Of a DNA stretch of 64,000 nt, positions 8,604-53,369 are shown piece by piece (positions within the stretch are counted from its first letter, which is position 1; each line of letters starts with the position of its first letter). Both the position numbers and the translations under genes were made by a program. Location of the stretch: the NCBI GenBank assembly GCA_035627515.1, contig DASPLQ010000012.1, positions 778,331 through 842,330 of the forward strand. Direction: 5' to 3'. The notes beneath the pieces are model-generated. The model saw only the letters and a program-made list of their open reading frames with translations, did no database searches and was not told where the DNA came from. The DNA comes from Vitreimonas sp. (lineage in GTDB: Bacteria; Patescibacteriota; Microgenomatia; UBA1400; PJMF01).

Positions 8604-8651
8604 AGACTATCAACGAACTCCATTTAACTATTAAGAGCTCAATCTGCTAGA

Positions 8652-8735
8652 GAAGTTGGCCTGGAGTGTGTTCATGGTGTGCGTAATGTACATTTTGACT
8701 GTAATGACATGTGTCCAGGGGAACTTCTGAAGGAA
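8652..8735 (+). repeat. copy A of a ~76-84 nt conserved intergenic element (copy B at 44211..44291), containing the hairpin CCTGGA...TCCAGG
   Basis: 83% identity to copy B over 76 nt with no indels. Core is CATGTACATTTTGACTGyAATGACwTGTGTCCAGGsGAACTTCTrAAGGAA. Flanked here by GAAGTT/AACTTC inverted repeats. Conservation is at nucleotide level, not reading frame. Confidence 0.55.
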
Positions 8736-11355: not shown

Positions 11356-12240
11356 ATGTCATGCAACACTTGTACTACCACTTTCCATGATTTTTTCTCG
11401 GATAATTTGTACACCTGGTGCACAAACTGCGGCAACTACGGTATTCACGCAGCTATGAAGCGGGCTTTGGTGGCGGAAAATATTCCTCCTCATCAGGTGG
11501 TGCTGTGTTTTGATATTGGTTGTAATGGTAATGGCTCAGATAAAATTGGTGGTTATCGTGTACATGGTTTGCATGGTCGAGCTATCCCCTTAGCTTGTGG
11601 AGCCTCCAATGCCAACAGTAAAGTCAAAGTCATTGGTTTTGGGGGTGACGGCGGTACTTTGGGTGAAGGTATCAACCATTTGGTGCATGCCATTCGCGGT
11701 AACTATAATGTTACTTTTGTGCTCCACAATAATTTGAATTATGGACTGACACAAGGCCAAGCCTCATCAACCACTAAACCTGGCATGAAAATGAACTCTG
11801 CTCCCGATGGAATTACTTCTGATCCCTTACATCCCATGAATTTTGTGTTGAGTTTAAACGCTAGCTTTGCCGCTCGGACTTTTTCGGGTGATGTCCATCA
11901 CATGACGAAAACATTCCAAGCTGCGGTTGCCCACCAAGGTTTTGCCTTTGTAGAGGTTCTTCAAAGTTGTCCCACCTACAATAAAGCTACTCCTCACGAA
12001 TGGTATCAGGAACGAGTCTATGATGTGGCCAATCGACCTGATTATGACTCTAGTTCTTTAGCTCAAGCATTGGCAGTTTGCCAAGACATTGAAGAGCACT
12101 TGGCGTTGGGAGTTCTGTACCAAGACAAAACGCGCAAGCCTTTTATGCAGCGCCAAGCCAATCGTTTAGAGATTACCACTGAGCTCGTCGACGAAGTCGC
12201 ACCCCGGTCAGTTGATGATTTAGTAGGGAGTTTTAGATAA
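11356..12240 (+). CDS. 2-oxoacid:ferredoxin oxidoreductase, beta (TPP-binding) subunit
   Basis: TPP-binding region IGFGGDGGTLGEGINHLVHAIRGNYNVTFVLHNNLNYGLT and a Cys-containing N-terminal segment. Starts 1 nt after the alpha subunit stop. Confidence 0.8.
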   Translation: MSCNTCTTTFHDFFSDNLYTWCTNCGNYGIHAAMKRALVAENIPPHQVVLCFDIGCNGNGSDKIGGYRVHGLHGRAIPLACGASNANSKVKVIGFGGDGGTLGEGINHLVHAIRGNYNVTFVLHNNLNYGLTQGQASSTTKPGMKMNSAPDGITSDPLHPMNFVLSLNASFAARTFSGDVHHMTKTFQAAVAHQGFAFVEVLQSCPTYNKATPHEWYQERVYDVANRPDYDSSSLAQALAVCQDIEEHLALGVLYQDKTRKPFMQRQANRLEITTELVDEVAPRSVDDLVGSFR

Positions 12241-12242
12241 CT

Positions 12243-12476
12243 ATGTCTAAAAACTCCTCCAAACAAAATCTCGAACCTGCTCATCGTGTTTATCGCTCCC
12301 GTCGTGATTTATTTATTGATAATTTGGTAGGGGGGGTAGCATGGGGATTTGGCAGTGTGATGGGCGCCACTGTGATTGTGGCCATTATTTTACTGATTTT
12401 GGCTCAAGTTCAGACTCTACCTTTTGTGGGCAACGTCGTCCGCATTGTGATCGAAGAAGTTCGCAAATATCAATAG
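12243..12476 (+). CDS. small hypothetical membrane protein (77 aa)
   Basis: Single hydrophobic helix (VMGATVIVAIILLILAQV). Tightly coupled downstream of the oxidoreductase beta gene. Confidence 0.4.
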   Translation: MSKNSSKQNLEPAHRVYRSRRDLFIDNLVGGVAWGFGSVMGATVIVAIILLILAQVQTLPFVGNVVRIVIEEVRKYQ

Positions 12477-12549
12477 TTTTTCTCCATTTCTCATCTATTT
12501 ATAACTGAGTTCTATTATTTTTGTTGATATTTCCATCTAAGATACTCCT

Positions 12550-13878
12550 ATGTCTAAAGTGGATGTAGTTATTGTGGGTAGTGGTTTAGCGGGTCTGAGT
12601 TGTGCTCGGGAGTTGTGTGATCGAGGTTTGAAGGTGGTAATACTAGAGCAGTGCCCAGTGGTAGGGGGACGCACTTCTTCCTGGAACGAAAGAGGTATGC
12701 ACGTAGAGTCTGGATTACATCGTTACTTAGGTTTTTATCGTGCGATGCCGGAATTGTTGAGTAACTGTGGATTGAGTCTGGACGAGGTCGTTATATGGGA
12801 GGATGAGATGGAGATTCGGACTCCTCAGCTGGAGCCAGCTGTCTTTGGCATGTCTCCTTTTTTTCGACCCTGGCAGACAGTGACGAGCTGGCTTGATAAT
12901 CGACACCTTCTGAGTACCCGTGATAAGGCTTCATTACTTCCCTTTTTTTTGATGGGTTTAAAAGAGTATTACACTCGCCCCGGATATCTTGATCAATTTT
13001 CTGTAGCTGAGTGGGCAGATCGGTATAGTGTCACTGCGGCTGCACTCCAGCGTTTATTAGTCCCCTTGACCGCCGGTATTTTTTTCTTGCCACCGGAGCA
13101 GTATTCGGCGCAAGTGTTGATGGGTATTGTGGCTCAGGCCTTGCCCACCGGTTACAAAACCAGAATCGGAGCTTTCAGCGGAGGGATGACAGAGGTGATG
13201 ACGGGACCTATTGCCGGGTGGTTAACAAAAAAAGGGGTGTCAGTAATTACTGATGCCCCTGTCACGCGCTTGTGTGGTAGCCGTGACAAAATCACTGGCG
13301 TAGAAGTGAATGGCAAAAAAATCTTAGCTGAGCAGGTCGTGGTGGCGACGGGGTTGGGGCCGGCGCAACGATTGTTAACACCTTTGTTTAAAAATCACTT
13401 GCGTTTCAAAAATCTTTTTGCGTTGCCGACGATGGCGGAAATTAATATTCAGCTTGAGCTCGATAGTCCGGCATTACCTGTTGATCGAACTACTTTTGGT
13501 CCAGGTACTAGTTTGGCCTGTATGGCTGAACAGAGCAGAACTACCTTTCGTAACTTGCCGGGGAGACTCTCAATTATTTTAAGTCCAGCAGAAAAATTTT
13601 ATACCTTAACTCCAGCTGCCATTTTTGATCATGTGGTGGCGGAAGCAAAAAAGCTCCACATTTTTATCAAAGAGCGAGTCACCAAGTATCGGGTGATTAA
13701 ACATCCTAAGGACTTTTACGCCATTTCCCCAGGCACTGATCATCTCCGGCCTTCACAACATACCTCGGTGCCAGGTTTAGTACTGGCGGGTGATTATACT
13801 CAACAGCCCTGGTACTGCACCATGGAAGGGGCAGTTATTTCTGGCAAAAAAGCAGCTCAGGTAATCCTGAGCTGCTGA
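12550..13878 (+). CDS. FAD-dependent oxidoreductase, amine oxidase/phytoene desaturase-like fold (HpnE/PPOX-like)
   Basis: N-terminal Rossmann dinucleotide motif VVIVGSGLAGLSCARELC...VVILE. C-terminal GLVLAGDYT...GAVISG motif typical of this flavoprotein family. Confidence 0.65.
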   Translation: MSKVDVVIVGSGLAGLSCARELCDRGLKVVILEQCPVVGGRTSSWNERGMHVESGLHRYLGFYRAMPELLSNCGLSLDEVVIWEDEMEIRTPQLEPAVFGMSPFFRPWQTVTSWLDNRHLLSTRDKASLLPFFLMGLKEYYTRPGYLDQFSVAEWADRYSVTAAALQRLLVPLTAGIFFLPPEQYSAQVLMGIVAQALPTGYKTRIGAFSGGMTEVMTGPIAGWLTKKGVSVITDAPVTRLCGSRDKITGVEVNGKKILAEQVVVATGLGPAQRLLTPLFKNHLRFKNLFALPTMAEINIQLELDSPALPVDRTTFGPGTSLACMAEQSRTTFRNLPGRLSIILSPAEKFYTLTPAAIFDHVVAEAKKLHIFIKERVTKYRVIKHPKDFYAISPGTDHLRPSQHTSVPGLVLAGDYTQQPWYCTMEGAVISGKKAAQVILSC

Positions 13879-14404: not shown

Positions 14405-15073
14405 TTAATCTTTAACCATGTAACCAAAGCCTCTGACTGAATGGATGAGAGGGTTTTTATAACCTTTATCAATTTTATTGCGCAAGTAACCTACGTAGAC
14501 ATCAACCACGCGGGTTTCGATATCAGCTGATGACCAGACCCGGCTCAAGATCATATCTCGTGTCAGCACTTTACCTTTATTAAGCAGTAAATACTCTAGC
14601 AGTTTGAACTCTAACGGTGTTAATTTAATTTCTTCACCGCCGCGGAGGACCTGGATCTTTTGAGTATCGAGGACTAAATCTTGGACACTTAATAAAGTAT
14701 CAGGTGAAGTAGCACTGCGTAAACGGGCTTTGACGCGGGCTAATAATTCTTCTAGTTCAAATGGTTTGGCGAGATAATCATCAGCGCCTAAGTTTAAAGT
14801 AGAGACAATATCCGCAGTGGTATGTTTAGCAGTCAGAACTAAAATTTGGGTATGAAGATTCATTTTCTTCACTTCTTTGCAGACAGATTCTCCGGATAAA
14901 TTAGGCAGACCTAAATCTAAAATCATTAAATCAGGAGCTTGCTGAGTGACCTTATTAATGGCCTGAATGCCATCTTCGGCTACTTCTACTTTATAGCCTT
15001 GGTCAATCATTATAGTGCGAAGATATTCTCTGACCTCTCGGTCATCTTCAACAATGAGTATCGAGTAATTCAT
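14405..15073 (-). CDS. OmpR-family two-component response regulator
   Basis: Receiver domain (ILIVEDD, phospho-acceptor in MILDLGLP, conserved T and K). C-terminal winged-helix domain (VLTRDMILSRVW...VDVYVGYLRNKID). Confidence 0.85.
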   Translation of the reverse strand: MNYSILIVEDDREVREYLRTIMIDQGYKVEVAEDGIQAINKVTQQAPDLMILDLGLPNLSGESVCKEVKKMNLHTQILVLTAKHTTADIVSTLNLGADDYLAKPFELEELLARVKARLRSATSPDTLLSVQDLVLDTQKIQVLRGGEEIKLTPLEFKLLEYLLLNKGKVLTRDMILSRVWSSADIETRVVDVYVGYLRNKIDKGYKNPLIHSVRGFGYMVKD

Positions 15074-20187: not shown

Positions 20188-20216
20188 TTGACTTATGTGT
20201 ATCAAAGAAGTATATT
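20188..20216 (+). promoter_or_regulatory. sigma70-like promoter upstream of the 20238 gene
   Basis: TTGACT -17 nt- TATATT, about 22 nt upstream of the ORF start. Confidence 0.5.
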
Positions 20217-20237: not shown

Positions 20238-21887
20238 TTGGTTATGACTAATTCCGCTCCCCAAGAAAAAAGAATTTTAGATCTGGATACTCTTGAAGAG
20301 ATTCTGAGAGGTAATTGGGCAACCAAACAACTGTCTAAAAATTGGATAGATTACTTAGCTTCTACTGCCTTCGGAAAAGCAATAGCGTTATCGATTGTTA
20401 ATACCCAATACCAGAGACAATCCCAAGAATACCAGCAGCAACAGCAAGTATTGCGAGCTGAACAGGAAGCTGCCGTCGCGCGTGCCCAGGATACCCGAAT
20501 GCCAATTGAGATTGGTGAAAGAGTAGTTGAGCATGAGTTAATCGCCACAGCAGAACAAGTCAAAGGAATTAATGCTACTTTAACAGCTGGTATTGCTTAT
20601 CTTGAGCGTCAATTAGCCTCGATTATTAATGCTGAAGGGGTACCTAACACCAGTCGTTGGGAAGAAGCTATTTCTCCCATTGAAGTAGTGAAATTATTTG
20701 CTAAGTCGAGAGCAGATGCTAACTTGCATACTCAAATGCTTGAGCAGGCAATGGGATATTTATGGAATCCTCATATAAATCAGATTGATAAAAGTGCAGC
20801 CAAACCTAAAAGCGGTGAAATTCAAAAGATTATGTGGGAATTTATGCAGGCTGCTAAGGGACCTGATGTTCATTTGGCTGAAGCTCAAATAGTTGTCACA
20901 CACACAGTAGATAAAGATGACACAGGTGAAGTTTTTAATCGTGAGGCGATGATAAATATCATTAATACAGTCATGGTGGCAAAAGCCGATAAGCAACGTT
21001 TAGTGAAGACTGCTGAAAACGATAATTATGCTACTTTAGAACTGGAAGCAATGTTGGAATTTTGTCGTCGCAAGGGATTGAGTGATACTTTAGTGAAAGC
21101 TGAGTTAGAAAAAATGCCTTCTCGAGAACTTCGGTTGAAATATCTCGCCTCATTGATGAAGTTGGTTTGGGAAACTAACTTGTGGTCTGGAAGAGATTAT
21201 AGTGGGGTAGCCCATAACATCCGTTTGCTTTATGAGCCTAGTCTCAAGGGCCATGAAACCGTTGTTCCGCTGCGACGCTTTAATAACAATATTTTTTGGA
21301 AAAGTATGGCTGGGGCATTGCGAGCTGACTTTTTTGATGCTGGTCAAAACAAAGCACTTTACTCAGAAACACATCTATTAATTGGAAAATTGGTTCGTTG
21401 TTTAGCGATTGTGGCCTTCTTCCGGGCCGTCATACTTCAAAATAGAAATGGATCTTTCTCTCAAGAGTGTAAAGAATCGTTCCGAATTTTTATTGAGCAA
21501 CAATATCCAGAGGAAGGTAGTAAAGCCGCCAAAGTATTTATGATGCCCAAAGAGACTAGCAAAACAAATATAGTCGCCATGGCCAATAAACTCATCAGAG
21601 GTCTGCAAGCCATAGAAGGTTTTACGATTGATGACATGCTCGAAATGTTTATTGATTCGAAAATTCCCAATATTCACAAACAATTACAAGCGTGGATAGA
21701 ACAACTTACCGCCCTCTTATTAAGTAATAGTCCAGTTTTCAAGTTCGATTTTGCTCTGTTAGAAATGCCTGAGCATGATACGCAAGAGGTGACGGCTCAA
21801 GCAATAGAAGCTGTTTTTCCTGAAGATGCAACTCAAACTGAAGACCACCCAACTCCGCCTTCTGCTGCTGCTTCAGCCACAGTCTAA
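20238..21887 (+). CDS. large hypothetical protein (549 aa) with no recognisable domain
   Basis: Long ORF with its own promoter and an upstream terminator. Gln-rich coiled-coil-like segment near the N-terminus. The start may be the ATG at 20244. Confidence 0.5.
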   Translation: MVMTNSAPQEKRILDLDTLEEILRGNWATKQLSKNWIDYLASTAFGKAIALSIVNTQYQRQSQEYQQQQQVLRAEQEAAVARAQDTRMPIEIGERVVEHELIATAEQVKGINATLTAGIAYLERQLASIINAEGVPNTSRWEEAISPIEVVKLFAKSRADANLHTQMLEQAMGYLWNPHINQIDKSAAKPKSGEIQKIMWEFMQAAKGPDVHLAEAQIVVTHTVDKDDTGEVFNREAMINIINTVMVAKADKQRLVKTAENDNYATLELEAMLEFCRRKGLSDTLVKAELEKMPSRELRLKYLASLMKLVWETNLWSGRDYSGVAHNIRLLYEPSLKGHETVVPLRRFNNNIFWKSMAGALRADFFDAGQNKALYSETHLLIGKLVRCLAIVAFFRAVILQNRNGSFSQECKESFRIFIEQQYPEEGSKAAKVFMMPKETSKTNIVAMANKLIRGLQAIEGFTIDDMLEMFIDSKIPNIHKQLQAWIEQLTALLLSNSPVFKFDFALLEMPEHDTQEVTAQAIEAVFPEDATQTEDHPTPPSAAASATV

Positions 21888-23690: not shown

Positions 23691-23737
23691 ACTTTTACTT
23701 GCTTTATAAAGGTTTTTTCTGAGATACTGATGGGATG
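23691..23737 (+). promoter_or_regulatory. conserved promoter cassette copy 1. Extended -10 (TGaGATACT) ending 6 nt before the ATG predicts a leaderless transcript.
   Basis: ACTTTTaCTTGCTTTaTAaAGGtTTTTTCTGAGATACTGaTGggATG. 35 of 43 positions identical to copy 2 (25634..25680). Confidence 0.45.
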
Positions 23738-25627
23738 TTTGTTGTTGAAGATGATTTAGCACATTTAGCCGAGACTCAGCCTGCTACTCCAAAAGTTGTC
23801 GACCCTACTCCGGTTCACAACGATACCGCTCCCACGGAGCCAGTTCTAAAAAAATCCCACATCCACAGTGACAAGGAACTTCGAGATGGAATTCAAGACG
23901 AACTTGATGCCTTACACCAAGATCCAGAGGAGTTATTAGCAGAGTTATTGCCTAGCGCTAGGCCGAGGGTGGAGAAATTAGCAGCTTTTTTAGCAGATAA
24001 ATTATTCAACAACTTTGCTGTCGGCGATAACGATTTAATAGGTTTGCTAGCTCAAGAGCCAGAGAGAATAATGAACTTCTATGGAAAGAAAGATGATGAA
24101 GTTGACGCGGAGGATTTACGACTCAAATTAACAACAGATTACCCCACTTTAGCTTTTGATTACGAACTAAATAGTGTGGGGATTGAGAGTGTTTTAACTA
24201 AACTTGTCGGGGTTATGAAGTCGCATCCTGAAGCTTTTGGGTATACCTTTCACGAATTAGAGTGGGCGACAACGTTACTCTATAAAAAGTTAGAAGAAAG
24301 ATATGCTGCCGGCCAGATGACAATTGCACAAAAGAAAGTAGGTGAAGTAGTGTTACTTTACCTTTTCACTGATAGCATTTGGTTTAAAGATGAGGTTTTT
24401 CTGAGTGATTGGCGAAATACGATCCCAGTAGGTCTTGACCACCCTGTTAGATACAATGCCGTACGTCACTCATTGGCAGTTTCTATCGCCGATTTTTGTA
24501 GGCAACATTTAGACATGGCACAAAACAAAATCCTTAGCGAGGAGGAGGAAGATAAATTATTTAAGGAGTTTAAAGAGCGTTTTCAAGGTCATAACTACGC
24601 TCAAGTATTCGGGGCGATCCAAAAAGTTTGGTATTATTTTGAGGCTACCACTAATGATAGACGGGCAGCGACCATTTTACATTCTTTAGCTTCCGAGCTA
24701 GCTTGGTATGCTAAGCCCAATAAAGGGGAAGTGTGGGATAAACTAAAAAAGACCAAGATCAAGTTAACTCCTGAACAGAAGCGGTATTATGCTGAGTTAT
24801 CTAAGGCATTCTTTGATTCAGACGATTGGCACCATCTTCGCCCAGAACAGCCTCCACCCCAGTGGTTATTCAAAATAGTCAAAGGATTATTTATTGGTTT
24901 ATCGATTGGCTCTGTTCTCACCATCGGTGCTAAAGAAAATCCACAAAAAACCAACGAGATAGTTAACACTGCTGAAAATTATTATCAGCTCAGCGCTGAA
25001 GCCCTAGCTGAGTTTTTGCCGGATAGGTTTGGTGGGCACGATGTAGATCGATCAAGTGCTGAAGCCACCGCTGTGAGTTCCAACGAACAAAATAAGCCTG
25101 GTGCTACTAACTTTACAGAGCAAGTTAACACGCAACCGGAGACTAGGCCTACACAAAGTGTCCCCACCCAACCTGCTCAGCCTCCACCCGAGAGCCCACC
25201 AGTAGTGTCGGCGACCCCAGAAGTAGTTTTGCCCACTACTGGTTGGCATACTTTCGTTGGCATTGATTTACAAGGTTGGCAAACAGTCAAAGAGTGGGAA
25301 AACGGTGGTTTTGGTTGGCGCGCGCCGGTGATCGAGCTAACAGAGTTTTTCTTGCGTGAAGCTCACACTAACCCCCAGGGAGCTGAGTATTCATATGGTT
25401 TTAATCCTCATGCCAGTGATGCCGAAACTATTGAGTGGGCAGTTCGCGCTGCTCAGGCAGTGCAGAATCAACATCCTGAACTTGCAGGTACAGTTACACC
25501 GGGTAACCTTGATGAAACAATCACTCCCATCATAGCTGGCATCGAGGGTAGCGCCACGGCTATTACACCGGTGCCAGTGACCAATTACACCGGCCTTGTG
25601 GATCGCTTAACCCAACGCTTGCCATAA
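23735..25627 (+). CDS. large hypothetical bitopic membrane protein (630 aa)
   Basis: Single TM near the middle (LFKIVKGLFIGLSIGSVLTIG). C-terminal half is Pro/Thr/Gln-rich and then globular. No known domain. Confidence 0.5.
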   Translation: MFVVEDDLAHLAETQPATPKVVDPTPVHNDTAPTEPVLKKSHIHSDKELRDGIQDELDALHQDPEELLAELLPSARPRVEKLAAFLADKLFNNFAVGDNDLIGLLAQEPERIMNFYGKKDDEVDAEDLRLKLTTDYPTLAFDYELNSVGIESVLTKLVGVMKSHPEAFGYTFHELEWATTLLYKKLEERYAAGQMTIAQKKVGEVVLLYLFTDSIWFKDEVFLSDWRNTIPVGLDHPVRYNAVRHSLAVSIADFCRQHLDMAQNKILSEEEEDKLFKEFKERFQGHNYAQVFGAIQKVWYYFEATTNDRRAATILHSLASELAWYAKPNKGEVWDKLKKTKIKLTPEQKRYYAELSKAFFDSDDWHHLRPEQPPPQWLFKIVKGLFIGLSIGSVLTIGAKENPQKTNEIVNTAENYYQLSAEALAEFLPDRFGGHDVDRSSAEATAVSSNEQNKPGATNFTEQVNTQPETRPTQSVPTQPAQPPPESPPVVSATPEVVLPTTGWHTFVGIDLQGWQTVKEWENGGFGWRAPVIELTEFFLREAHTNPQGAEYSYGFNPHASDAETIEWAVRAAQAVQNQHPELAGTVTPGNLDETITPIIAGIEGSATAITPVPVTNYTGLVDRLTQRLP

Positions 25628-25633
25628 ATTCTG

Positions 25634-25680
25634 ATTGTTGCTTGCGTGTCAAAGGGTTTTTCTGAGATACTGGTGAAATG
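25634..25680 (+). promoter_or_regulatory. conserved promoter cassette copy 2 (leaderless-type, extended -10 TGaGATACT 6 nt before the ATG)
   Basis: TTGCTTGCgTgtcAAAGGgTTTTTCTGAGATACTGgTGaaATG. Confidence 0.45.
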
Positions 25681-27504
25681 CATGAAGCTCCGATAACTGC
25701 TGTTAACTTGCCACTTTCTACGGCCATTAGAACAGATGGTGTTCTGAGTCCTCAACAAGAGGATACTTTGAAGTATCGAAATAGAGCCGAACAAAAAGCA
25801 GAAGATTTGCTAAATAACATTATCGGGGGAAGAGACTTAACAGTAGTAATGGGGTATGTTACTACTGAACCTAAGGCTGTTAATGAAGTTGTTCCTGATT
25901 TTTCAATTCTATTTAATACTGAAGCCACAGGAACTTTAACATCTGCGGTGCCTGCAGTTTTATCTCATGACACGATTGTAACTGAAGGCGAAACCCGCCT
26001 GCACAACGGTTTGTATCATCAACTTTCTACTGAGAATCATAGTTTTCAAGGTTTAAAAATTAATCAAATAGGTGATGAATATGTCACTAAACTTAGTTCA
26101 CTTTTAATTGATAAATATGGGGTGAACTATACAGCGGAAGATGTAATTAGAGCACTTGATAAGCTCTTCACTAAAGTTTCTGGCGATTCAGATTTGGCTG
26201 AGAAGGCTCGAACTCAACTTAAAGCAGTCTTAGAAGCAACTAAAGCTAAACTCAAACATCGATTCGCCACTGTTTCAATTGAGAATAAAACAGCTCCAGT
26301 GGAGAGACTCGAGTTGCTTAAGCCTGGAAATAGGGCTGTCAGAATTGAACTCACGCACTTTTGTTTAACTGAAGGATTTCAAGTTGATAACTCGGAAGCT
26401 CAGCGATCAAAGTTTGTGGCCAAATTTTTAGCTGAATTTGATGGTTACCAACCTGGAGTTTTGCGACACTACTTAGCTATTCTTTACAAAGAGTTATCTG
26501 TTTTGCCCAGTGATATGGGAGTGGTAAAACAAAGTATTGATCTTCTTAACACAGCAATTCTGCGCCAACAGGTCGATAATAAGAACTGGAAGCATCAATC
26601 AGATTCTTCCAAGTTAGGTGTTGTTTTTAGTAAGTATCGATTTTATCGCGATTTCCAGCGTGAGGTAGCTGAGGCCTTAAAAAACAAGCAAAAAGCCACC
26701 GAGGTTGAAAAGCAGAAGGCGCTGCTTGAAAAAACAGCTGTAAGTGCTGAAATAAGAAAACCTGTTCTTTCACGAAAAATGCTTTGGGGTGGGGTCGTTT
26801 TCTTATTGGTTGGGGCCTGTGGTTTAGTTGAGGCATTTAACCCTGGTGCATTGACTCAAGCGCGAGCTAACTTTAATGATAATAATGAAAACTCATCTTC
26901 AACTTCGATGGTCAGTGAGTTGTTTGCAGATTTGTTAGCAGCAGAAAAACATATCGAGCATATTTTGAGTGATGAATATGTTCCAGCCTTAGTGAATGAT
27001 CCATATAAAGAAATGCGTGCCGCTGCGGCTTCGCCGATAGTACCTGAAGCGTCAGTAACTCGTAGTGAAGGGATGCAAGAGTTGCATCAACTGAGTCAAG
27101 ATTTAGCTCTAGCATCTTTGCGCGATCAGGTCACAGGGGGGTCGCCTGAACGCCAACGCTTAGTTGATTACGTACGTTGGACGATCAATATGTCATATAA
27201 TCGGCCTGGAGATTTTGCGCGGCTAGTGTCTATTACGGGGGTAAGTTGGAATCCAGAAAAGTTGGAAACATATTTGCGGATAGCTACTCGGATTGAGAAG
27301 TATCTGCCTGATTTACATCAACAGGTTATAACTGGTCAATCTGACATTTTAGGAGCAGTTCAGGCAAATATGGATGAGTTCCCAGAAGGTTTTGATGCTC
27401 GTGCAGTTGAGCATGACAATACCACTCCAGATGCTTCAATTTCAGGAGAAATTGATACAGAATTACTAGATAAACTGCAAACTCTGACTAAGATTGCTGG
27501 CTAA
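25678..27504 (+). CDS. large hypothetical bitopic membrane protein (608 aa), same architecture as the preceding gene
   Basis: Single central TM (MLWGGVVFLLVGACGLV). No known domain. Shares the upstream cassette with 23735..25627. Confidence 0.5.
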   Translation: MHEAPITAVNLPLSTAIRTDGVLSPQQEDTLKYRNRAEQKAEDLLNNIIGGRDLTVVMGYVTTEPKAVNEVVPDFSILFNTEATGTLTSAVPAVLSHDTIVTEGETRLHNGLYHQLSTENHSFQGLKINQIGDEYVTKLSSLLIDKYGVNYTAEDVIRALDKLFTKVSGDSDLAEKARTQLKAVLEATKAKLKHRFATVSIENKTAPVERLELLKPGNRAVRIELTHFCLTEGFQVDNSEAQRSKFVAKFLAEFDGYQPGVLRHYLAILYKELSVLPSDMGVVKQSIDLLNTAILRQQVDNKNWKHQSDSSKLGVVFSKYRFYRDFQREVAEALKNKQKATEVEKQKALLEKTAVSAEIRKPVLSRKMLWGGVVFLLVGACGLVEAFNPGALTQARANFNDNNENSSSTSMVSELFADLLAAEKHIEHILSDEYVPALVNDPYKEMRAAAASPIVPEASVTRSEGMQELHQLSQDLALASLRDQVTGGSPERQRLVDYVRWTINMSYNRPGDFARLVSITGVSWNPEKLETYLRIATRIEKYLPDLHQQVITGQSDILGAVQANMDEFPEGFDARAVEHDNTTPDASISGEIDTELLDKLQTLTKIAG

Positions 27505-27506
27505 AA

Positions 27507-27535
27507 TTGACAAACCTCCAGCCACCACTTACAAT
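27507..27535 (+). promoter_or_regulatory. consensus sigma70-like promoter of the alaS leader
   Basis: TTGACA -17 nt- TACAAT, immediately after the upstream stop codon. Confidence 0.6.
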
Positions 27536-27541
27536 TCAAGC

Positions 27542-27766
27542 AACAACTTAACAACAGCGATGAATGGAAGAATTTTGAGTTCATTTGAATTCAGAAGGGC
27601 CGCCCAGGAGCTGCCAGCGAAGAGCTGAGCCGGAAGTTTACAAAGTTCACCGTCAACAGAACTAGAGCCCTATGCCGAAATGGTTTAGGGGAACCAAGGT
27701 GGTACCACGAGAAGCCTCGTCCTTGTCCAGAACTAGAGTAGTTCAGGATGAAGACGAGGTTTTTTT
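27542..27766 (+). ncRNA. candidate T-box riboswitch leader controlling alaS
   Basis: About 260-nt leader. T-box-like sequence AACCAAGGUGGUACCACGAG (27690..27711; consensus AAUUAGGGUGGNACCGCG). It contains UGGU, which is complementary to an NCCA 3' end with an A discriminator base, as in tRNA-Ala. It overlaps the 5' arm of a long terminator hairpin (27715..27733 / 27741..27759) that is followed by UUUUUUU (27760..27766). Confidence 0.55.
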
Positions 27767-27803
27767 ATTGGCATAAAGAAAATTACTTAACCCGAAAGGT
27801 CAT

Positions 27804-29684
27804 ATGACACCGAATCAATTACGCGACAAGTATTTACAGTACTTTGAAAAACAAGGTCATGCTATTGTGCCGTCTTCACCCCTGGTGCCTGAAAATGACC
27901 CAACTACCTTATTTACAGGCTCAGGCATGCAGCCGATGGTGCCCTATCTATTAGGTCAGCCTCATCCCAAAGGCACTCGAATTGTAGATTCACAGAAATG
28001 TTTCCGGTCGCAAGACATTGAAGAAGTGGGTGACAATCGCCACACCACATTTTTTGAAATGTTGGGTAATTGGTCGCTGGGTGATTACTTTAAAAAAGAC
28101 CAGTTGCGATGGTTTTTTACTTTTTTGACTGACGAAGTGGGCTTAGATCCGCATCGTATTTTTGTGACGGTTTTCCGTGGCAGTGAAGAATTAGATATTC
28201 CTCGTGATAGCGAATCTGTTGCTGTCTGGAAGGAGTTGTTTGCAGAGAAGGGTATCGCAGCTACCGATATCGATTTTGCTGATCGCGATGGCATGCAAGA
28301 CGGCCGTATTTTTTACTACGAAGAAAAGAAAAACTGGTGGTCTCGAGCAGGTGTGCCCGCGAATATGCCGGCTGGTGAACCAGGGGGTCCCGATAGTGAA
28401 GTTTTTTATGACTTTGGCGCTGAGTTACATCTTCACGAAAACTCAACTTTCAAAACTGAACCCTGTCATGTGAATTGTGATTGCGGCCGCTTTTTGGAAA
28501 TTGGGAACTCAGTATTCATGCAGTACCAGAAACAGCCCGATGGTAGTTTCAACGAACTGCCACAGAAGAATGTTGATTTTGGCGGCGGTTTAGAACGCAT
28601 TCTAGCTGCTCATAATCAAGATGGAGATGTTTTTAACACTGAGCTATTTAGCCCGATTATGACCCAGCTCTCACAAGTCAGTGGCCAAGAATATCGCACT
28701 GCGGATGACAAGGTCAAACGTTCTTTTCGAGTGATTGCTGACCATCTGAAAGCAGCGACGATGTTAGCAGCCGATGGCGTATACCCAGCCAACAAAGAAC
28801 AAGGTTATTTTGCTCGGCGCTTGGTACGGCGCGCAGTGCGTTATGGCAGAATGATTGGCATTACGCAACCATTTGTGAGCCAAGTTGTGCAGGTCGTAGG
28901 TGAAATATATGAGCAGGCTTATCCCGAAGTTTTTGGTCAGTTAGAAAAAATTAAAACCGGCCTCAGTGATGAAGAACAAAAATTTAATAAAACCTTGGAA
29001 AAAGGTTTGCGAGAGATCGAAAAAATTGGTGAGCTGACGGGTGAGTCTGCCTTCAAGCTCTATGAAACCTATGGTTTTCCCTTGGAGTTGACAGAGGAAA
29101 TCGCTCAGGAGCGCGGCCAAATCGTGGATCGCGAAGCTTTTCGTTTGGCGTTCAATGAACACAAAGATAAATCACGGACCGCTTCGGCTGGCAAGTTCAA
29201 AGGTGGTCTGCAAGATCACTCAGAAGTGACGATTAAGTACCATACAGCTACACATTTGCTTCATGCTGCGTTGCGGCAGGTATTGGGTACCCATGTCCAA
29301 CAAAAAGGCTCTAATATTACGGCCGAGCGGTTACGATTTGATTTTTCTCACCAGCAGGCTATGACGGAACAAGAAAAGCAGCAGGTGGAACAACTCGTAA
29401 ATAACTGGATCAAGCAAGATTTGTCAGTCACGCGCCAAACGATGCTCAAACAAGAGGCACTCAATTCAGGCGCCATTGCTTTCTTTTTAGAAAAGTATCC
29501 CGATGAAGTTTCGGTCTATACAGTTGGCCAGGATCCTACTGGTAAACAAGGTGAGGGCTGGATTTCTAAAGAGTTTTGTGGAGGGCCACACGTAGAGCAC
29601 ACTGGGCAAATTGGACCGATCAAGCTTACAAAAGAACAAGCTACCTCAGCTGGCGTACGGCGGGTGTATATGGAGTTGGCATAA
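27804..29684 (+). CDS. alaS: alanyl-tRNA synthetase, short form lacking the C-terminal C-Ala domain (626 aa)
   Basis: Class II catalytic core (FTGSGMQP, GDNRHTTFFEMLGNWSLGDYFK). Editing-domain zinc motifs HTATHLLHAALRQ and CGGPHV are present. The protein ends ~250 aa short of canonical bacterial AlaRS. Confidence 0.85.
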   Translation: MTPNQLRDKYLQYFEKQGHAIVPSSPLVPENDPTTLFTGSGMQPMVPYLLGQPHPKGTRIVDSQKCFRSQDIEEVGDNRHTTFFEMLGNWSLGDYFKKDQLRWFFTFLTDEVGLDPHRIFVTVFRGSEELDIPRDSESVAVWKELFAEKGIAATDIDFADRDGMQDGRIFYYEEKKNWWSRAGVPANMPAGEPGGPDSEVFYDFGAELHLHENSTFKTEPCHVNCDCGRFLEIGNSVFMQYQKQPDGSFNELPQKNVDFGGGLERILAAHNQDGDVFNTELFSPIMTQLSQVSGQEYRTADDKVKRSFRVIADHLKAATMLAADGVYPANKEQGYFARRLVRRAVRYGRMIGITQPFVSQVVQVVGEIYEQAYPEVFGQLEKIKTGLSDEEQKFNKTLEKGLREIEKIGELTGESAFKLYETYGFPLELTEEIAQERGQIVDREAFRLAFNEHKDKSRTASAGKFKGGLQDHSEVTIKYHTATHLLHAALRQVLGTHVQQKGSNITAERLRFDFSHQQAMTEQEKQQVEQLVNNWIKQDLSVTRQTMLKQEALNSGAIAFFLEKYPDEVSVYTVGQDPTGKQGEGWISKEFCGGPHVEHTGQIGPIKLTKEQATSAGVRRVYMELA

Positions 29685-29723
29685 CTTTTGCTTGCTTTGT
29701 ACTAAAAAATTCTGCATACTAAC
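29685..29723 (+). promoter_or_regulatory. conserved promoter cassette copy 3 (TGcATACT extended -10), about 40 nt upstream of the 29765 gene
   Basis: ACTTTTgCTTGCTTTgTActAAAAAATTCTGcATACTAA begins right after the alaS stop, exactly as copy 1 begins after its upstream stop. Confidence 0.4.
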
Positions 29724-29764
29724 TTCAACACAGTTACTGTTGTGATGACTGTGGTGAAAGTTGT

Positions 29765-31603
29765 ATGTTTGCTCAAGGTGGTATCCCCGAAGAACATAAA
29801 GAAAAAAGTGAGTTACTCAAACTACCTGCTAGTGGGCATCGGTTGGATAACTTACCACAGCTGTTAAAAGAGCAAAAGTCTGCTGCGGAGTTGGCACAAA
29901 AGACTCATGAGGTAGTTGATGGATTAATTAATCCATCTTTAACTGCGCTTGCAACAGAAGCCTCTAAGAATGTTGAGGGTAATCCTGCTAACGCTTCGAA
30001 AAATCCGGTGGCAACAGAGATAAACGCGCTCTTACAGAAAGATTCTCCTTTACAGCTGCTAAAGGAGACAGCCGATCTCCAATTAGAACAAACGAACTCT
30101 ACATTAACCACCTTAGCTAATGATGCGATGACAGCACTGGGTTTTTTCCAGAATCGTGGTTTTTATGACAAATTTTCATCTCAGTATGATGTGGGAGGGA
30201 TCTTAGATGATCTTAAGACACCCGGAAAGACTCGAGTAGATTGGCTCAAAGACAATGCCGAGAAAATCGCCCATGCTTTAAAAGATGCGTGCGCTAAACA
30301 TTTTGAAATAGCTGACGGTGTTTTAGATCTCTATGCTCTTATTTTCCCGGGAAATCAAAAAATTATAAGATTACAGAGAATGCATCCTAACGGGAATGCT
30401 CCTGGTGAATTATGGTCAAGCGAAGACCTGCAAAGATTTGATAGAGACATGAAGGCAACTCAGCAAGATTTGAAGCCCAAGCTAGAAGAAATGGTAAGAA
30501 CCTGGCAGAAATTGGGTCACAATCCTTCACAAATTATGAACTTTTTAAATGGAGACTACAATCAAATGAGATTTGATGTGGAGTCAGTAAAAGGGCAACT
30601 GACAACTTTAATGCGAGACGTTGAGGCTCAACGACAGGCAGCTGAGGCGACTACGGCTGTTGGTCTACTGAGGTTCCTTGAGCAAGGGAATGATGCCGTA
30701 ATCAGTGTGGCAGCAGAGTCAGGTCTACAAAAAATACTCAAGCCTGACCAATATCAGAACTTAATTGATATTTTAAGTAACAACGCTCAAGCTAATGGTG
30801 GTGATAAAGTTTCACTCCTGCAGCTAGCCGCCTTTGAAGCTCATGGGGTTTCAACACAACAACTTATTAAAGATATTTTTCGAAGAAATCCGGCTCTAAT
30901 TATCAAACTTTCAGAGCAACTACAAGATTGGAGTCAAGTTGATGGTAGAAATCTCAGATTTGCCCAGCAGGTGAGTGAAAAATACTTGACTGGACTTAAA
31001 GCCAGAGCTGATAAAACTAAATCGCCAAGTGAAGCGTTGAGCTCTCTCAAGCAATATCTGACAGAAATGAGTCAGCCGGCGATCAAAGTCAAGGAAACAA
31101 GGGAGCAGGTGGAAAAGTCTATTGAGCGCTTTGATAACGATAAATTGCAAAACAGAGATGCCGCTGATACCTATGACGATTTGGCTAAGCTGGCATGTAA
31201 GTTATTGGGTATGGGTGAGCAAGAGACTTTACTTAATATGAACCCGCTTCTCGAAGCTTTTACGAGTAGAAATTTGCGCAGAGCGCTTTTAGCCCACTTG
31301 CCAGAAGGGTCCTCGGCCAGAGCTGAATATGCAAATTTCACCATCCTGTTGCCAATTGATGGGAACAGAAAGATGGAAATCAGTATTACAAGTGCTCTGA
31401 ATATCGCTTATATGAGCTTGAAAGCCCACCATCCAGATGGAGTGGGTACAGTGGGAGTGATGCTGGGTTATCAATTTAATGATAAAGGCGACAGGCCAAA
31501 AGTAACGCGAACCGCCTCAAGCCCAGTCTTTGGTTTGCAGGATGTGACTAAGAATCTTTTAATGATTAATGACAATGTCAAAAAAGTAGAAATTCCTAAG
31601 TAA
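29765..31603 (+). CDS. large hypothetical soluble protein (612 aa)
   Basis: No TM and no known motifs. Helical, Gln/Leu-rich N-terminal region. Confidence 0.5.
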   Translation: MFAQGGIPEEHKEKSELLKLPASGHRLDNLPQLLKEQKSAAELAQKTHEVVDGLINPSLTALATEASKNVEGNPANASKNPVATEINALLQKDSPLQLLKETADLQLEQTNSTLTTLANDAMTALGFFQNRGFYDKFSSQYDVGGILDDLKTPGKTRVDWLKDNAEKIAHALKDACAKHFEIADGVLDLYALIFPGNQKIIRLQRMHPNGNAPGELWSSEDLQRFDRDMKATQQDLKPKLEEMVRTWQKLGHNPSQIMNFLNGDYNQMRFDVESVKGQLTTLMRDVEAQRQAAEATTAVGLLRFLEQGNDAVISVAAESGLQKILKPDQYQNLIDILSNNAQANGGDKVSLLQLAAFEAHGVSTQQLIKDIFRRNPALIIKLSEQLQDWSQVDGRNLRFAQQVSEKYLTGLKARADKTKSPSEALSSLKQYLTEMSQPAIKVKETREQVEKSIERFDNDKLQNRDAADTYDDLAKLACKLLGMGEQETLLNMNPLLEAFTSRNLRRALLAHLPEGSSARAEYANFTILLPIDGNRKMEISITSALNIAYMSLKAHHPDGVGTVGVMLGYQFNDKGDRPKVTRTASSPVFGLQDVTKNLLMINDNVKKVEIPK

Positions 31604-31690: not shown

Positions 31691-33997
31691 ATGGAGTTAC
31701 CAAACCTGTTTTCGTCACCGGCTGGGCCTGATAAATTGTTGTTGGCAGTTGTGCTGACTGGGAGCACTGTTCAAGCAGCGTTGTGGAAGGTGAAAGATGG
31801 TGAGATCGTAGTGGTCCATACCTCAAGTGTTCTGGAATACACCGATGATGAGAACTGCTTAGTGGTGACTGATGAGAGCTTGCAAGAGTTGGGCAAAGAA
31901 TCTGAAGATGTTGAGGAGGTGGTGTTTGGCTTTGCACCGAGTTGGGTTGATGCTCAAGGTATTGTTGATGTTCATAAACCATTGTTGAAGAAATTAACTA
32001 AACAGCTCAGCCTCAAAGCGGTGGGTTTTGTGGTAATTGATGAAGCTTTATTTCAAGAACTAAAAGAGCATGAGCCTTTTTTAAGTGCATTTTTGATTGT
32101 GGCGGCTCAGCAAGAACTGCGAGTGTCGGTCATTCATCAAGGTAACTTAGGTTTTACGATTGAAGTGGGCAAATCTGATGATGCCGCTGCCGATGTGATT
32201 GAGGCTTTAGCGCGCGCCACAGCCGAGGGCAAGAAGCTACCTCCAGTTTTACCGGCCAAGATGTTATTAGCTTCAGCTGAGCTGGACGAAAGTGAAGTTA
32301 CCGATATCCAACAAAGTTTAATTGCACACGATTGGGTGGCATCGCATGGGTTGTTACATCCTCCCACCGTCGATGTCTTATCCACGACAAGCGTGGTAGA
32401 AGCGATCACCCGTCAAGGTGGGCGAGCAGTTGCTGAAGTTCAAGGGCTGATTAAACGAGCAGCCAGTAGTACAACGCCCACTCCACAAGTGCCTCAGCTG
32501 GAGAGTGACGTAGTACCTGTAGCAGGTGAAGTTGTTGCCGACGAATTAGGTTTCGAGCCCATGGTGCTCGAAGCCCAACCCAATGAGCCGCAGCCTGCCA
32601 CGCCTAGTTTGCCAGAAGCCGAAGAATATGCCGTAGAGCAAGCAAATGTGGTACTCCCTAATCATGCTCAATCTAGCTTTGGTGTCCCCATTGGTTTGCA
32701 CCACTTGGAAAAGTCTAATTCTGGAACTTCTCCAGCGTTCCGCACTCATGAGGATGAAGAGTATGCATTTGAAACTGAACAACCTGCCAGTCACAGTCAA
32801 GCAAGTTCACCGCGTCAGCGACTTGGAACTTTTATTCACGCTCATCGCTTATTTATTACCTTGGGATTTATTGGGGGAGTTTTAGCATTACTTCTGATTG
32901 CCTTTGGTGCCATTGCGATGAGTACGCAAGCTCAGGTGGCAATCACACTCAATAGTAAGCCACTCTCGCAAGAAGTTCCCGTGACTTTAGATGCCAAGGC
33001 AACTGCTGTTGATGCCGCTAACCGAGTCCTACCTGCTAAAGCCGTAACTCAGGAGCTGAGTGAGACTAAGTCCCTGCCCACTACCGGGATTAAATTAGTG
33101 GGGGACAAGGCTAAAGGCACAGTCACTTTGATCAACAAAACTGAGTCATCTAAATCATTTGCTGCTGGGACAGTGCTGACTGCTGGCAAGCTCAAGTTTG
33201 TTTTAGATAAAGAAGTGACCGTGGCATCTGCCAGTGTCAGTAAGCGTGGTAGTGAAGGTGAAAACAAAACCTATGGTAAAGCTGATGGGGCAGCGACGGC
33301 TCAAGCTATCGGTACTGAGAGCAATGTTGGTCAAAATGTAGAGTTTACGGTCGGTGACTTTTCAGGGAATACGTACTCAGCGATCGCCAAGAGTGCTTTC
33401 AGCGGCGGAGCTAGCCGTGAAGCTCGTGCAGTCAGTGAAAAGGATCGTGAAAAAATTCTAGCCGATCTGAAGACTGAGCTGATTAAAAAAGCCGAAGCTG
33501 CTTTTCAAGAACAATCAGGAAATGGCAGTTATACTGTCCCCACCGGCAAAGTCTCGGTCAAAACCTCTGAGTACAGCGGTAAAGCCGGTGAGGAAGCAGA
33601 TACCCTGACGCTGAAAGCGACGATGGTAGTGGAGGGTCTAAGTTATCAAGTAGGAGATTTACAACCGCTGGCTAAAGAGATCTTAGCTACCCAACTGCCG
33701 AGTGAGTATGAGCTAAGTGATGAAGCCCCTCAGGTGTTATCTACCCCTTCGCAAACCGCCAGCAATTCCGGCAAAGTGGTGTTACAGATGAACATGAGCA
33801 CTGTTGCCTATCCTAAGATCGATGTTGCAGCTTGGCTGAATCAGCTGCAAGCTAAACAACTAACTGAAGCCGAGAGTGAGCTCAAAACTAAAGCAGAAGT
33901 AAAAAGTGTCGAGATTACTCTTCAGCCCAAGATTGCTGAATGGGTTTGGCCACGGTTACCGAGTAAAGCTGAAAGAATTAAGGTACAAACACAATGA
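31691..33997 (+). CDS. large bitopic membrane protein (768 aa), translationally coupled to the sortase gene
   Basis: About 380-aa cytoplasmic N-domain, one TM (LFITLGFIGGVLALLLIAFGAIAM), and a ~360-aa extracellular C-domain rich in Thr/Ser/Lys/Gly. ATGA overlap with the downstream sortase gene. Confidence 0.5.
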   Translation: MELPNLFSSPAGPDKLLLAVVLTGSTVQAALWKVKDGEIVVVHTSSVLEYTDDENCLVVTDESLQELGKESEDVEEVVFGFAPSWVDAQGIVDVHKPLLKKLTKQLSLKAVGFVVIDEALFQELKEHEPFLSAFLIVAAQQELRVSVIHQGNLGFTIEVGKSDDAAADVIEALARATAEGKKLPPVLPAKMLLASAELDESEVTDIQQSLIAHDWVASHGLLHPPTVDVLSTTSVVEAITRQGGRAVAEVQGLIKRAASSTTPTPQVPQLESDVVPVAGEVVADELGFEPMVLEAQPNEPQPATPSLPEAEEYAVEQANVVLPNHAQSSFGVPIGLHHLEKSNSGTSPAFRTHEDEEYAFETEQPASHSQASSPRQRLGTFIHAHRLFITLGFIGGVLALLLIAFGAIAMSTQAQVAITLNSKPLSQEVPVTLDAKATAVDAANRVLPAKAVTQELSETKSLPTTGIKLVGDKAKGTVTLINKTESSKSFAAGTVLTAGKLKFVLDKEVTVASASVSKRGSEGENKTYGKADGAATAQAIGTESNVGQNVEFTVGDFSGNTYSAIAKSAFSGGASREARAVSEKDREKILADLKTELIKKAEAAFQEQSGNGSYTVPTGKVSVKTSEYSGKAGEEADTLTLKATMVVEGLSYQVGDLQPLAKEILATQLPSEYELSDEAPQVLSTPSQTASNSGKVVLQMNMSTVAYPKIDVAAWLNQLQAKQLTEAESELKTKAEVKSVEITLQPKIAEWVWPRLPSKAERIKVQTQ

Positions 33998-34959
33998 TAG
34001 GGCAGACACCACCTATTGCCAGAGACGACATGGTCAAGCTCTACCGACAAGCTTTAGCTTCTGGTGTGCCACTGACCAAGCTAGAAGAGAAAATTGAGCG
34101 GTTAAGCCATCGTACTCAGGTGGCTCAAGCAGTGGAAAGTACCCAGGTGGCTGAGCGTGTCACTACCCTCAAAAATCGATTACCTAAAGCAATTAGAGTG
34201 GGGGCAGCACTGGTGCCGTTATTTTTCATCATGGTAGGTATGGGTTTAGTGGGGAATGCTTTATTACCATTTGCTCAGTATTACTTTGTGGAGCTGCCCC
34301 AAATCCAAGCTAGTACCCTCACCTCCCCGTTACCACCAGAACAGGTGTTAGATGCCAACCCCATTGTGATTGCTCAAGCGCAAGCGAGCACTGCTGAAGG
34401 CCCCTTACAAGGAGTGGGTATGGGGGAAAGCACCAAACCGATTATTCTCGATACTAAATTGGATTTCACTAATCTATCGAACTGGTTTGGTGAAACTGAG
34501 TTGAGCGAGTTGGAGAAGGGTGCACAGGAAGAAGAAGTGTATTATATTGATATTCCGTCAGTAGATGTCACTAATGCTGAGGTGCGGTTGGGTGGCGTCA
34601 ACTTAAATAAGAGTCTCATTCAATATCCTGGAACGGCAGCTCCAGGCGAGCCAGGGGCACCAGTTATTTTTGGTCACTCAGTATTACGGCAGTTTTACAA
34701 CCCGAGTGAAAAAAACCCTCGCCGATATAACTCGATCTTCAGTTATATTATGACGTTGAAAAAAGGTGATGAGATTTTTGTAACCTACAAAGGGGTACGT
34801 TATCGCTACCTGGTTCAAGATAGAGCTGAGGTGAAGCCCACTGATGTCCATATTTTGACTCAAAAGTATGATACTCGCCAGATCAAGCTGGTGACGTGTT
34901 ACCCTGAGGGATCGTATAAAAATCGCGGTGTGATAACTGCAGTATTAGTGCCTAATTAA
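33994..34959 (+). CDS. sortase-family transpeptidase, membrane-anchored
   Basis: Conserved His (IFGHSVL), the TLxTC-type catalytic Cys motif (IKLVTCYP), and a downstream Arg (NRGVITAVL). N-terminal TM after a ~60-aa cytoplasmic segment. Confidence 0.75.
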   Translation: MIGQTPPIARDDMVKLYRQALASGVPLTKLEEKIERLSHRTQVAQAVESTQVAERVTTLKNRLPKAIRVGAALVPLFFIMVGMGLVGNALLPFAQYYFVELPQIQASTLTSPLPPEQVLDANPIVIAQAQASTAEGPLQGVGMGESTKPIILDTKLDFTNLSNWFGETELSELEKGAQEEEVYYIDIPSVDVTNAEVRLGGVNLNKSLIQYPGTAAPGEPGAPVIFGHSVLRQFYNPSEKNPRRYNSIFSYIMTLKKGDEIFVTYKGVRYRYLVQDRAEVKPTDVHILTQKYDTRQIKLVTCYPEGSYKNRGVITAVLVPN

Positions 34960-44130: not shown

Positions 44131-44210
44131 ATACGTACTTTATAGGAAATTTCTTGCATTAAGCTTGCATACAGCAAACTCTACCTATCTCAGTATCAAC
44201 CTGTAGAAAA

Positions 44211-44291
44211 GTGAACCTGGACACTGTCTATCGTGTGCAACATGTACATTTTGACTGCAATGACTTGTGTCCAGGCGAACTTCTAAAGGAA
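44211..44291 (+). repeat. copy B of the ~76-nt conserved intergenic element (copy A at 8652..8735)
   Basis: Contains a 9-bp stem CCTGGACAC/GTGTCCAGG around the conserved core ATGTACATTTTGACTGCAATGAC. Same orientation as copy A. Confidence 0.55.
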
Positions 44292-52844: not shown

Positions 52845-53369
52845 ATGTCATTTTTACTCAAGTATCGTGAGCTTGGTATTTTTCCCCACCCATGGAAATG
52901 GAGAGACTATGAAGTGGGTGATGATGTGCGCTTATTAGCCTTCATTAATGAAATCAGAACGCCATTTACTTCCAAAAGGCGAATCAAAAAAGTTATTAAG
53001 CAATTGCAGTCCGTCGATCAAATTCATCAATTAAGTAGCCAAGATGATGAGTTAGAGACTTTTTTCCCTATCATTGCCATGATCTTTAGAAGGGAGTTAT
53101 CAGACAGTTTACAAAAAGTTATTATCCAGCCCCCCCAGCAGGTGTTTCGCCTCAAACCTGACCGTGAACTTGACCTGACTCAATTAGTCCGTATTAGCGC
53201 TAGCAGCACCGCCCCCGATAGCAGAGAACTGCAAGGCTATAAGTTTCATCCTTATTATGTGGAAACTGAAGCTGGAGCGATCAGTCTGGCCGCTAAAGTA
53301 CCTCAGCTAATTTTTGAGGATATTAGCTATATTATTTATCAAAAATTGTTGGCTGAAGCCAAGAAATAA
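52845..53369 (+). CDS. hypothetical protein H6 (174 aa), tandem paralog of H7
   Basis: Shared segments with H7: KYRE, ELETFFPIIAMIF vs ELELFFPLMAQLF, and HPYYVETEAGAISL vs FRYYAETELGYLTL. Confidence 0.5.
   Translation: MSFLLKYRELGIFPHPWKWRDYEVGDDVRLLAFINEIRTPFTSKRRIKKVIKQLQSVDQIHQLSSQDDELETFFPIIAMIFRRELSDSLQKVIIQPPQQVFRLKPDRELDLTQLVRISASSTAPDSRELQGYKFHPYYVETEAGAISLAAKVPQLIFEDISYIIYQKLLAEAKK

Follow-up and report, generated by a model that had tools for sequence, protein, structure and literature searches.

Related promoter-like blocks before unrelated orphan genes in a Patescibacteria genome, two of them near-identical and placed for possible leaderless transcripts

Extended -10 (TGn) promoters of the sigma-70 class, of the Escherichia coli galP1 type, are common in Gram-positive bacteria. 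A lead of another kind comes from the Mycoplasma vsp, vlp and vsa loci, where a short conserved 5′ cassette precedes tandem, highly divergent genes for membrane or surface proteins. In the leaderless bacteria that GeneMarkS-2 places in group C (Actinobacteria, e.g. Mycobacterium tuberculosis, and Deinococcus deserti), first-in-operon genes bear the signature of a Pribnow box 6-8 nt ahead of the start codon, and a considerable share of transcription units begin with the AUG, without a 5′ untranslated region or a Shine-Dalgarno (SD) sequence (PMC6028130). Full-text searches of the searchable library found no literature linking leaderless mRNAs with the Candidate Phyla Radiation (CPR), Patescibacteria or Saccharibacteria. 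Here we analyze a stretch of 64,000 nucleotides, hereafter the window, from the 1.41-Mb contig DASPLQ010000012.1 of an uncultured Patescibacteria genome (GCA_035627515.1), in which a block of about 45 bp stands in three copies, each ahead of a large orphan gene. What is unusual at this locus is that copies 1 and 2 are nearly identical over the spacer and discriminator while the genes behind them share nothing. We consider it fairly likely that the blocks act as compact promoters of the sigma-70 type, with copies 1 and 2 placed for leaderless mRNAs. A first-pass annotation made from the letters alone had noticed all three blocks, and the sequence bears out their positions:

23691..23737, plus strand, promoter-like block copy 1, recognized from the sequence, as a member of the repeat family and by its start-anchored identity with copy 2
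23735..25627, plus strand, A630, a 630-aa orphan with one transmembrane (TM) helix at 379-399, acidic and predicted to be all-helical
25634..25680, plus strand, promoter-like block copy 2, recognized from the sequence, by the repeat search and by its start-anchored identity with copy 1
25678..27504, plus strand, B608, a 608-aa orphan with one TM helix at 369-391
29685..29723, plus strand, promoter-like block copy 3, recognized from the sequence, with an exact AACTTTTRCTTGCTTTRTA match to copy 1
29765..31603, plus strand, C612, a 612-aa orphan without a TM helix by hydropathy, between alaS and D768

Copy 1 occupies the entire intergenic space between ytxH and A630. Its -35-like hexamer TTGCTT (23699-23704) is followed by an 18-nt spacer and by an extended -10 (TG at 23720-21, GATACT at 23723-28), then by 6 nt and the ATG at 23735. 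Copy 2 has the same arrangement, with TTGCGT at 25642-47, an 18-nt spacer, TG at 25663-64, GATACT at 25666-71, 6 nt and the ATG at 25678. As first noted, exactly 6 nt separate the end of TGaGATACT from the ATG in both copies, which makes the A of the start codon the seventh base past the hexamer. With TGn ahead of a hexamer that has A2 and T6, both copies qualify as extended -10 elements, and both boxes lie at the distance of about 6-8 nt from the start that marks leaderless genes. The -35 elements agree with TTGACA at three of six positions, such an element at 17 ± 1 nt being optional in the extended -10 class, and a consensus scan was silent. TTGCTT also lies about 17 nt 5′ of the TAAAAT box of the response-regulator gene at 15073 (minus strand). 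A630 and B608 both open with an ATG, the first in-frame start past a stop, and the NCBI annotation of the source genome, whose locus tags include VD999_04200, 04205 and 04215, gives identical start codons for A630, B608 and C612. The blocks had been described as beginning right after the upstream stop codon; this holds for copies 1 and 3, which start at the very next base, but copy 2 starts 6-10 nt beyond it. The copies have no conserved dyad or direct repeat in common; the palindrome CTTTATAAAG is confined to copy 1.

Copies 1 (23695-23737) and 2 (25638-25680) are identical at 34 of 43 positions, so that the likeness first reported stands and its count of 35 does not; an exact 16-mer, TTTTTCTGAGATACTG, is common to both. 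Taken alone, one 16-mer common to two sites in 64 kb is close to what chance would give, and it is the position that is remarkable. For 57 gene starts in the window, the preceding 40 nt were aligned at the start codon, which gave 1596 pairs with a mean identity of 11.0 (sd 3.0). Copies 1 and 2 agree in this test at 31 of 40 positions (z = 6.6), and the next best pair reaches 21. Their likeness is beyond chance. It is bounded by the ATG on the 3′ side and by the -35 region on the 5′ side, and the coding DNA beyond has nothing in common. At up to three mismatches, no further copies of the block were found in the window, apart from a weak 13/16 match inside A630. A partial fourth copy in the coding DNA of A630 (24394-24418), matching the 3′ half of copy 2 at 21 of 25 positions (GGTTTTTCTGAG...), lacks a following ATG and does not stand out among the chance repeats of this region; it was rejected as probably due to chance. 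The 46 metagenome or viral matches to the 18-mer TTTTCTGAGATACTGRTG have unrelated flanks and were likewise discarded as chance matches. An Rfam scan of the window gave nothing at gathering thresholds.

Copy 3 has the same 5′ half as copy 1: the 19-mer AACTTTTRCTTGCTTTRTA is identical in the two, and these are its only matches in the window at up to three mismatches (0.24 expected). The motifs TTCTG and ATACT are also common to both. The spacer is where copy 3 departs from copies 1 and 2. Here TTGCTT (29692-97) is separated by 17 nt from CATACT (29715-20), and the TG directly abuts the hexamer, one base out of register for an extended -10. The hexamer ends 44 nt ahead of the ATG at 29765, outside the leaderless distance, and, as read from the sequence, no in-frame start lies between the stop codon at 29720-22 and this ATG. 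We infer a transcription start near 29727 and a leader of about 38 nt; GGTGA lies 5-12 nt before the C612 ATG. Copy 3 had been counted as a further copy of the module; the 19-mer in common with copy 1 supports this, but the copy is a leadered variant without a proper TGn extended -10.

On the reading that we favor, copies 1 and 2 would be extended -10 promoters composed of TGn, GATACT and a weak TTGCNT -35 at 18 nt. RNA polymerase would then start at the start codon or within one base of it and produce leaderless mRNAs for A630 and B608, a reading of these two copies that we find plausible. Copy 3 would be a related promoter, with the same -35 and upstream half and a CATACT -10, from which C612 would be transcribed with its short leader. 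Such a layout would be this organism's ordinary mode for genes that come first in a unit. With the streamlining of a CPR genome, intergenic DNA may have been trimmed to the promoter alone, and the blocks would start at the upstream stop codon because the space has shrunk to this extent. The promoter could have been copied either together with an ancient tandem gene duplication or alone, and then kept by selection on promoter function; a shared origin is suggested because copies 1 and 2 are near-identical, their likeness is bounded and the coding sequences are unlike. The conserved spacer AAAGGnTTTTTC may contain a regulator site. The analysis shows the sequence and its geometry, the statistics, the orphan status of the genes, their absence from relatives and the habit of the genome; that the blocks are active as promoters, that transcription starts at the ATG, and that the copies have a common origin and are co-regulated is what we infer. 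All this amounts to no new mechanism and no new kind of control, and the locus is a neat example of the normal habit of the genome.

This habit was seen when the distance d from the end of a -10 box to the first ATG was scanned for the 62 open reading frames (ORFs) of at least 100 aa in the window. TANNNT stands at exactly d = 6 in 8 of the 62, as compared with about 1-2 at other offsets, and TGN[TGC]ANNNT occurs five times at d = 6 and twice at d = 8. Boxes of this kind precede the following genes:

1412, subtilase, TGtTATTAT + 6 nt, Pfam domain not placed at the N-terminus
9118, flavodoxin, TGgTACAAT + 6 nt, Pfam domain from residue 6
12550, flavin adenine dinucleotide (FAD) amine oxidase, TAAGAT + 6 nt, Pfam domain from residue 5
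15073, minus strand, OmpR-type response regulator, TGaTAAAAT + 6 nt, Pfam domain from residue 5
18316, minus strand, CobW-like GTPase, TGaTAGCAT + 8 nt, Pfam domain from residue 8
19104, minus strand, methyltransferase, TACAAT + 6 nt, Pfam domain not placed at the N-terminus
22400 and 53418, further -10 boxes 6-8 nt before an ATG

The start codons of the flavodoxin, FAD amine oxidase, response regulator and CobW genes are fixed, because their Pfam domains begin at residues 5-8. The same scan of 80 related CPR loci (1903 ORFs) counted 147 ORFs at d = 6, 85 at d = 7, 91 at d = 8 and 71 at d = 9, with mostly 25-50 at each offset beyond 15 nt; TATAAT and TATACT lead among the hexamers at d = 6. 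The alaS orthologues of the two related loci L001 and L002 carry TGTATAAT + 7 nt and TGgTATAAT + 9 nt, respectively. The leaderless geometry first ascribed to the blocks is therefore borne out as the recognized 6-8 nt signature, which recurs at conserved genes with fixed starts, but not as a special mark: judged from these counts, the layout is a habit of the whole genome and of the CPR, and so does not distinguish the orphan genes. The missing SD sequence had also been taken as a sign of leaderless transcripts. SD-like 4-mers precede 9 of 57 starts in the window and 7 of 57 positions of a coding control; since the genome initiates mostly without SD, its absence is uninformative. The -10 signal at 6 nt, which runs through the genome, offers a practical aid to fixing start codons in CPR annotation.

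A630, B608 and C612 are real coding genes with native-like composition. Their codon usage correlates with that of housekeeping genes in frame (r = 0.33-0.62) and is uncorrelated out of frame; for A630, r is 0.62 in frame and -0.20 and 0.09 in the other two frames. A search of 5.8 billion clustered proteins returned self-matches only for the three proteins, as did a full phmmer search of 1.84 billion representatives with A630. Neither Pfam nor NCBIfam places a domain in these three or in g20238, the 549-aa ORF at 20238, which agrees with the earlier description of four large ORFs without a recognizable domain. PADLOC and PHROGs gave non-significant matches for the orphans, with E-values of 0.007 or weaker. 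Hydropathy also confirms one central TM helix in the 630- and 608-aa proteins and none in the 612-aa protein. A single central helix recurs in g20238 (381-399) and in the conserved D768 (387-405), so that its first residue falls at 379 in A630, 369 in B608, 381 in g20238 and 387 in D768. In B608, four K/R on the N-terminal side of the helix against one on the C-terminal side suggest a topology with the N-terminus in and the C-terminus out. No N-terminal hydrophobic segment that could act as an export signal was found by hydropathy in the orphans. Sortase substrates were considered and rejected: the LPTTG of A630, at residue 499, has no TM helix after it and a C-terminal sorting signal is missing, and the D768 family as a whole does not conserve the LPTTG that D768 has at residue 462.

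The first-pass annotation had further proposed these four ORFs as a candidate surface/effector gene family under common control. BLASTP among them gave best E-values of 0.1-0.8, hhalign probabilities did not exceed 1.7%, Smith-Waterman scores against shuffles stayed below z = 1 for all six pairs, and none of the four matched a profile of the D768 family (23 proteins). Hidden paralogy was rejected on these four negative results, and a gene family finds no support beyond the layout, that is, the central single TM helix of three of the four ORFs. Remote-homology searching and structure prediction had been suggested as checks. The former found neither homologues of A630, B608 and C612 nor homology between the four ORFs, and single-sequence AlphaFold (AF2) models of A630 and B608, with a predicted local distance difference test (pLDDT) of 37 and 39, were too poor for comparison. 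Nor does g20238 share the module, as had been supposed: downstream of a strong terminator it has its own promoter, TTGACT-17-TATATT at 20188-20216, without the block.

That the genes are lineage-specific, as also first claimed, is upheld by synteny. The closest AlaS relatives belong to two metagenome-assembled genomes (MAGs; 68% and 64% identity), all AlaS relatives are Patescibacteria, and synteny ties the window to Microgenomates-type genomes. In L002 the contiguous order is yqeY, a helix-turn-helix (HTH) gene, g23066, ytxH, alaS, D768, sortase, ruvX and mltG, and the order in L001 is similar. In the window, A630 and B608 lie between ytxH and alaS, and C612 between alaS and D768. All three are missing from the syntenic yqeY-HTH-ytxH-alaS-D768-sortase block of L001 and L002; because these are the closest relatives, the three genes are, on this comparison, lineage-specific additions. 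At the alaS/D768 junction L001 has instead a different, unrelated orphan of 301 aa (11880-12785) without a Pfam match, with TGaTATAGT 9 nt before its ATG. The junction is therefore variable in the clade, and it may be a hotspot of lineage-specific genes. In six other CPR loci, no large orphan with a central TM helix was seen in the variable gaps beside alaS. As to the source, the NCBI label "Vitreimonas sp." (an alphaproteobacterium) is at odds with the gene content, the GC content of about 44% and the AlaS relatives, which point to Patescibacteria; several related MAGs labelled Pseudomonadales or Gammaproteobacteria probably carry label errors as well.

Some neighboring elements deserve mention in their own right. 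The alaS gene has a strong promoter of its own, TTGACA-17-TACAAT at 27507-27535 (within the region 27507-27803), followed at 27551-27727 by a T-box leader that spans the full RF00230 model with a shortened stem I (55.3 bits, E = 1.2e-11, below the gathering score of 93 bits). A terminator-like hairpin with a T-run lies near 27715-27765, upstream of alaS. In L001 and L002 a leaderless-type promoter stands directly before alaS and leaves no room for a T-box. AlaS itself (27804-29684) has only 626 aa, comprising the catalytic core plus the second additional domain, fewer than bacterial AlaS usually has; the alignments with all 80 CPR relatives cover this same span, about 621-626 residues. D768 (31691-33997), 768 aa long, has one central TM helix and no Pfam domain; a sortase gene (33994-34959) adjoins it, and D768 is conserved beside a sortase in at least 22 CPR loci. 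The motif xTG...G(D/E)KAKGTVT is conserved in its C-terminal domain, and the L002 orthologue gives a weak, sub-threshold match to Baseplate_J (E = 9e-4). Elsewhere, an 88-nt element occurs twice at 81% identity, at 8648-8735 upstream of the flavodoxin/PFOR genes and at 44204-44291 upstream of rpsL. It folds as a long hairpin on either strand (z -2.1 to -2.8), has only a chance-level match in Rfam to a microRNA precursor (E = 0.065, 24.5 bits against a gathering score of 70), and its core 14-mer was not found in the 126 loci compared. A small structured RNA is one possible identity, a palindromic repeat element another.

Several observations weigh against the blocks being promoters for leaderless mRNAs. 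GATACT has G at position 1 and there departs from TANNNT, and in the CPR loci GANNNT shows no enrichment at d = 6 (32 against a background of about 30). The -35 elements reach only half of the consensus, and a simple sigma-70 scan called neither site; the missing SD lends no argument in a genome that mostly does without. No terminator lies between ytxH and A630, A630 and B608, or alaS and C612, so that read-through transcripts are likely and the ATGs could serve as internal starts. Core-promoter function alone, moreover, does not explain the conservation of the spacer. It is here that a co-regulated module, the view of the first-pass annotation, would enter, in which the extra conserved bases (the AAAGGnTTTTTC spacer, the TGnTG discriminator and the AACTTTTRCTTGCTTTRTA upstream half) form the operator of one transcription factor and the three orphans a small regulon of envelope or host-interaction proteins. 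This would refine the promoter reading and is not strictly exclusive of it; we hold it to be possible but doubtful. The spacer and discriminator, normally unconserved in core promoters, are identical in copies 1 and 2, the 19-mer links copies 1 and 3, all three copies precede lineage-specific orphans, and for two of the products, both membrane proteins, a C-terminal domain of about 230 aa is predicted to be external. However, copy 3 departs in exactly the spacer, no dyad or direct repeat is conserved (CTTTATAAAG occurring in copy 1 only), and there are two to three sites without a candidate regulator and no more copies in the window. The lack of terminators between ytxH, A630 and B608 would also suit a signal acting in the RNA, with the genes read through and the U-rich tract and start context (GGUUUUUCUGAGAUACUGnUGnnAUG) serving as an SD-independent initiation region of the S1 type. 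Most genes of the window, including operon-internal ribosomal protein genes, have no SD, which makes internal SD-less initiation common, and at 8-20 nt ahead of the AUG the conserved stretch is rich in U. This role of the block is a live but weaker rival to the promoter reading, and an unlikely one: the TGn-NANNNT element sits at the exact offset where -10 boxes pile up genome-wide, the likeness reaches a correctly spaced -35-like TTGC, an element without a role at the RNA level, and operon-internal starts in the window are without such a block.

Quite unlikely, in our estimate, is the broader view that the block of about 45 bp is a portable expression module that goes with new genes of this CPR lineage, whether acquired or newborn, or marks a dedicated regulon of fast-evolving envelope proteins. 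Three unrelated orphans, each with a related promoter that begins at the upstream stop codon, would then flank alaS inside conserved synteny, which could reflect promoter-first capture or a recombination mechanism; in the regulon alternative the regulatory DNA would have been conserved while the coding sequence diverged past recognition. The block might instead be a functionally meaningless relic of a recent duplication of about 45 bp or of a gene-conversion patch between intergenic regions. The nine mismatches scattered over 43 nt, and the position of copies 1 and 2 next to each other (1.9 kb apart, in the same orientation), would fit such an event. We judge it very unlikely, since the edges of the patch coincide with the -35 region and the ATG, and a larger copied segment at 79% identity implies similar flanks, whereas the coding DNA and the proteins share nothing. 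Hardly credible is a generic intergenic repeat, a mobile-element end (like a repetitive extragenic palindromic sequence or a miniature inverted-repeat transposable element) or a chance resemblance. The near-chance expectation of the lone 16-mer would allow it, but all three copies in the window stand at gene starts, no others appear there apart from the weak match in A630, the external 18-mer matches have unrelated flanks, and the start-anchored z value is high; the Pfam-scanned ORFs (about 1-36 kb plus the ORF at 52845) include no recombinase or transposase.

If the start sites were confirmed, the locus would provide a clean case of leaderless expression in Patescibacteria, and of a streamlined genome that runs lineage-specific orphans on no more than about 45 bp of regulatory DNA. 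That the promoter is conserved while the coding sequences are unlike would also give a small but useful handle on gene addition and control in the CPR. Among the known systems, the Mycoplasma vsp/vlp/vsa loci differ from this one, where we found neither a conserved signal peptide or lipobox nor internal coding repeats, inverted copies or a site-specific recombinase close by, and which comprises two to three copies only. Copies 1 and 2 resemble the extended -10 promoters of the galP1 type in the TG one base upstream of the hexamer, in A2 and T6 and in the weak -35; unlike these, they have G at position 1 of the hexamer, and copy 3 has its TG in the wrong register. From group C the locus is set apart by its phylum, Patescibacteria/CPR, by GATACT with a TGn extension in place of TANNNT, and by the presence of two near-identical promoter copies. 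It nevertheless shares with group C the same -10 peak, both in this window and in the 80 CPR loci.

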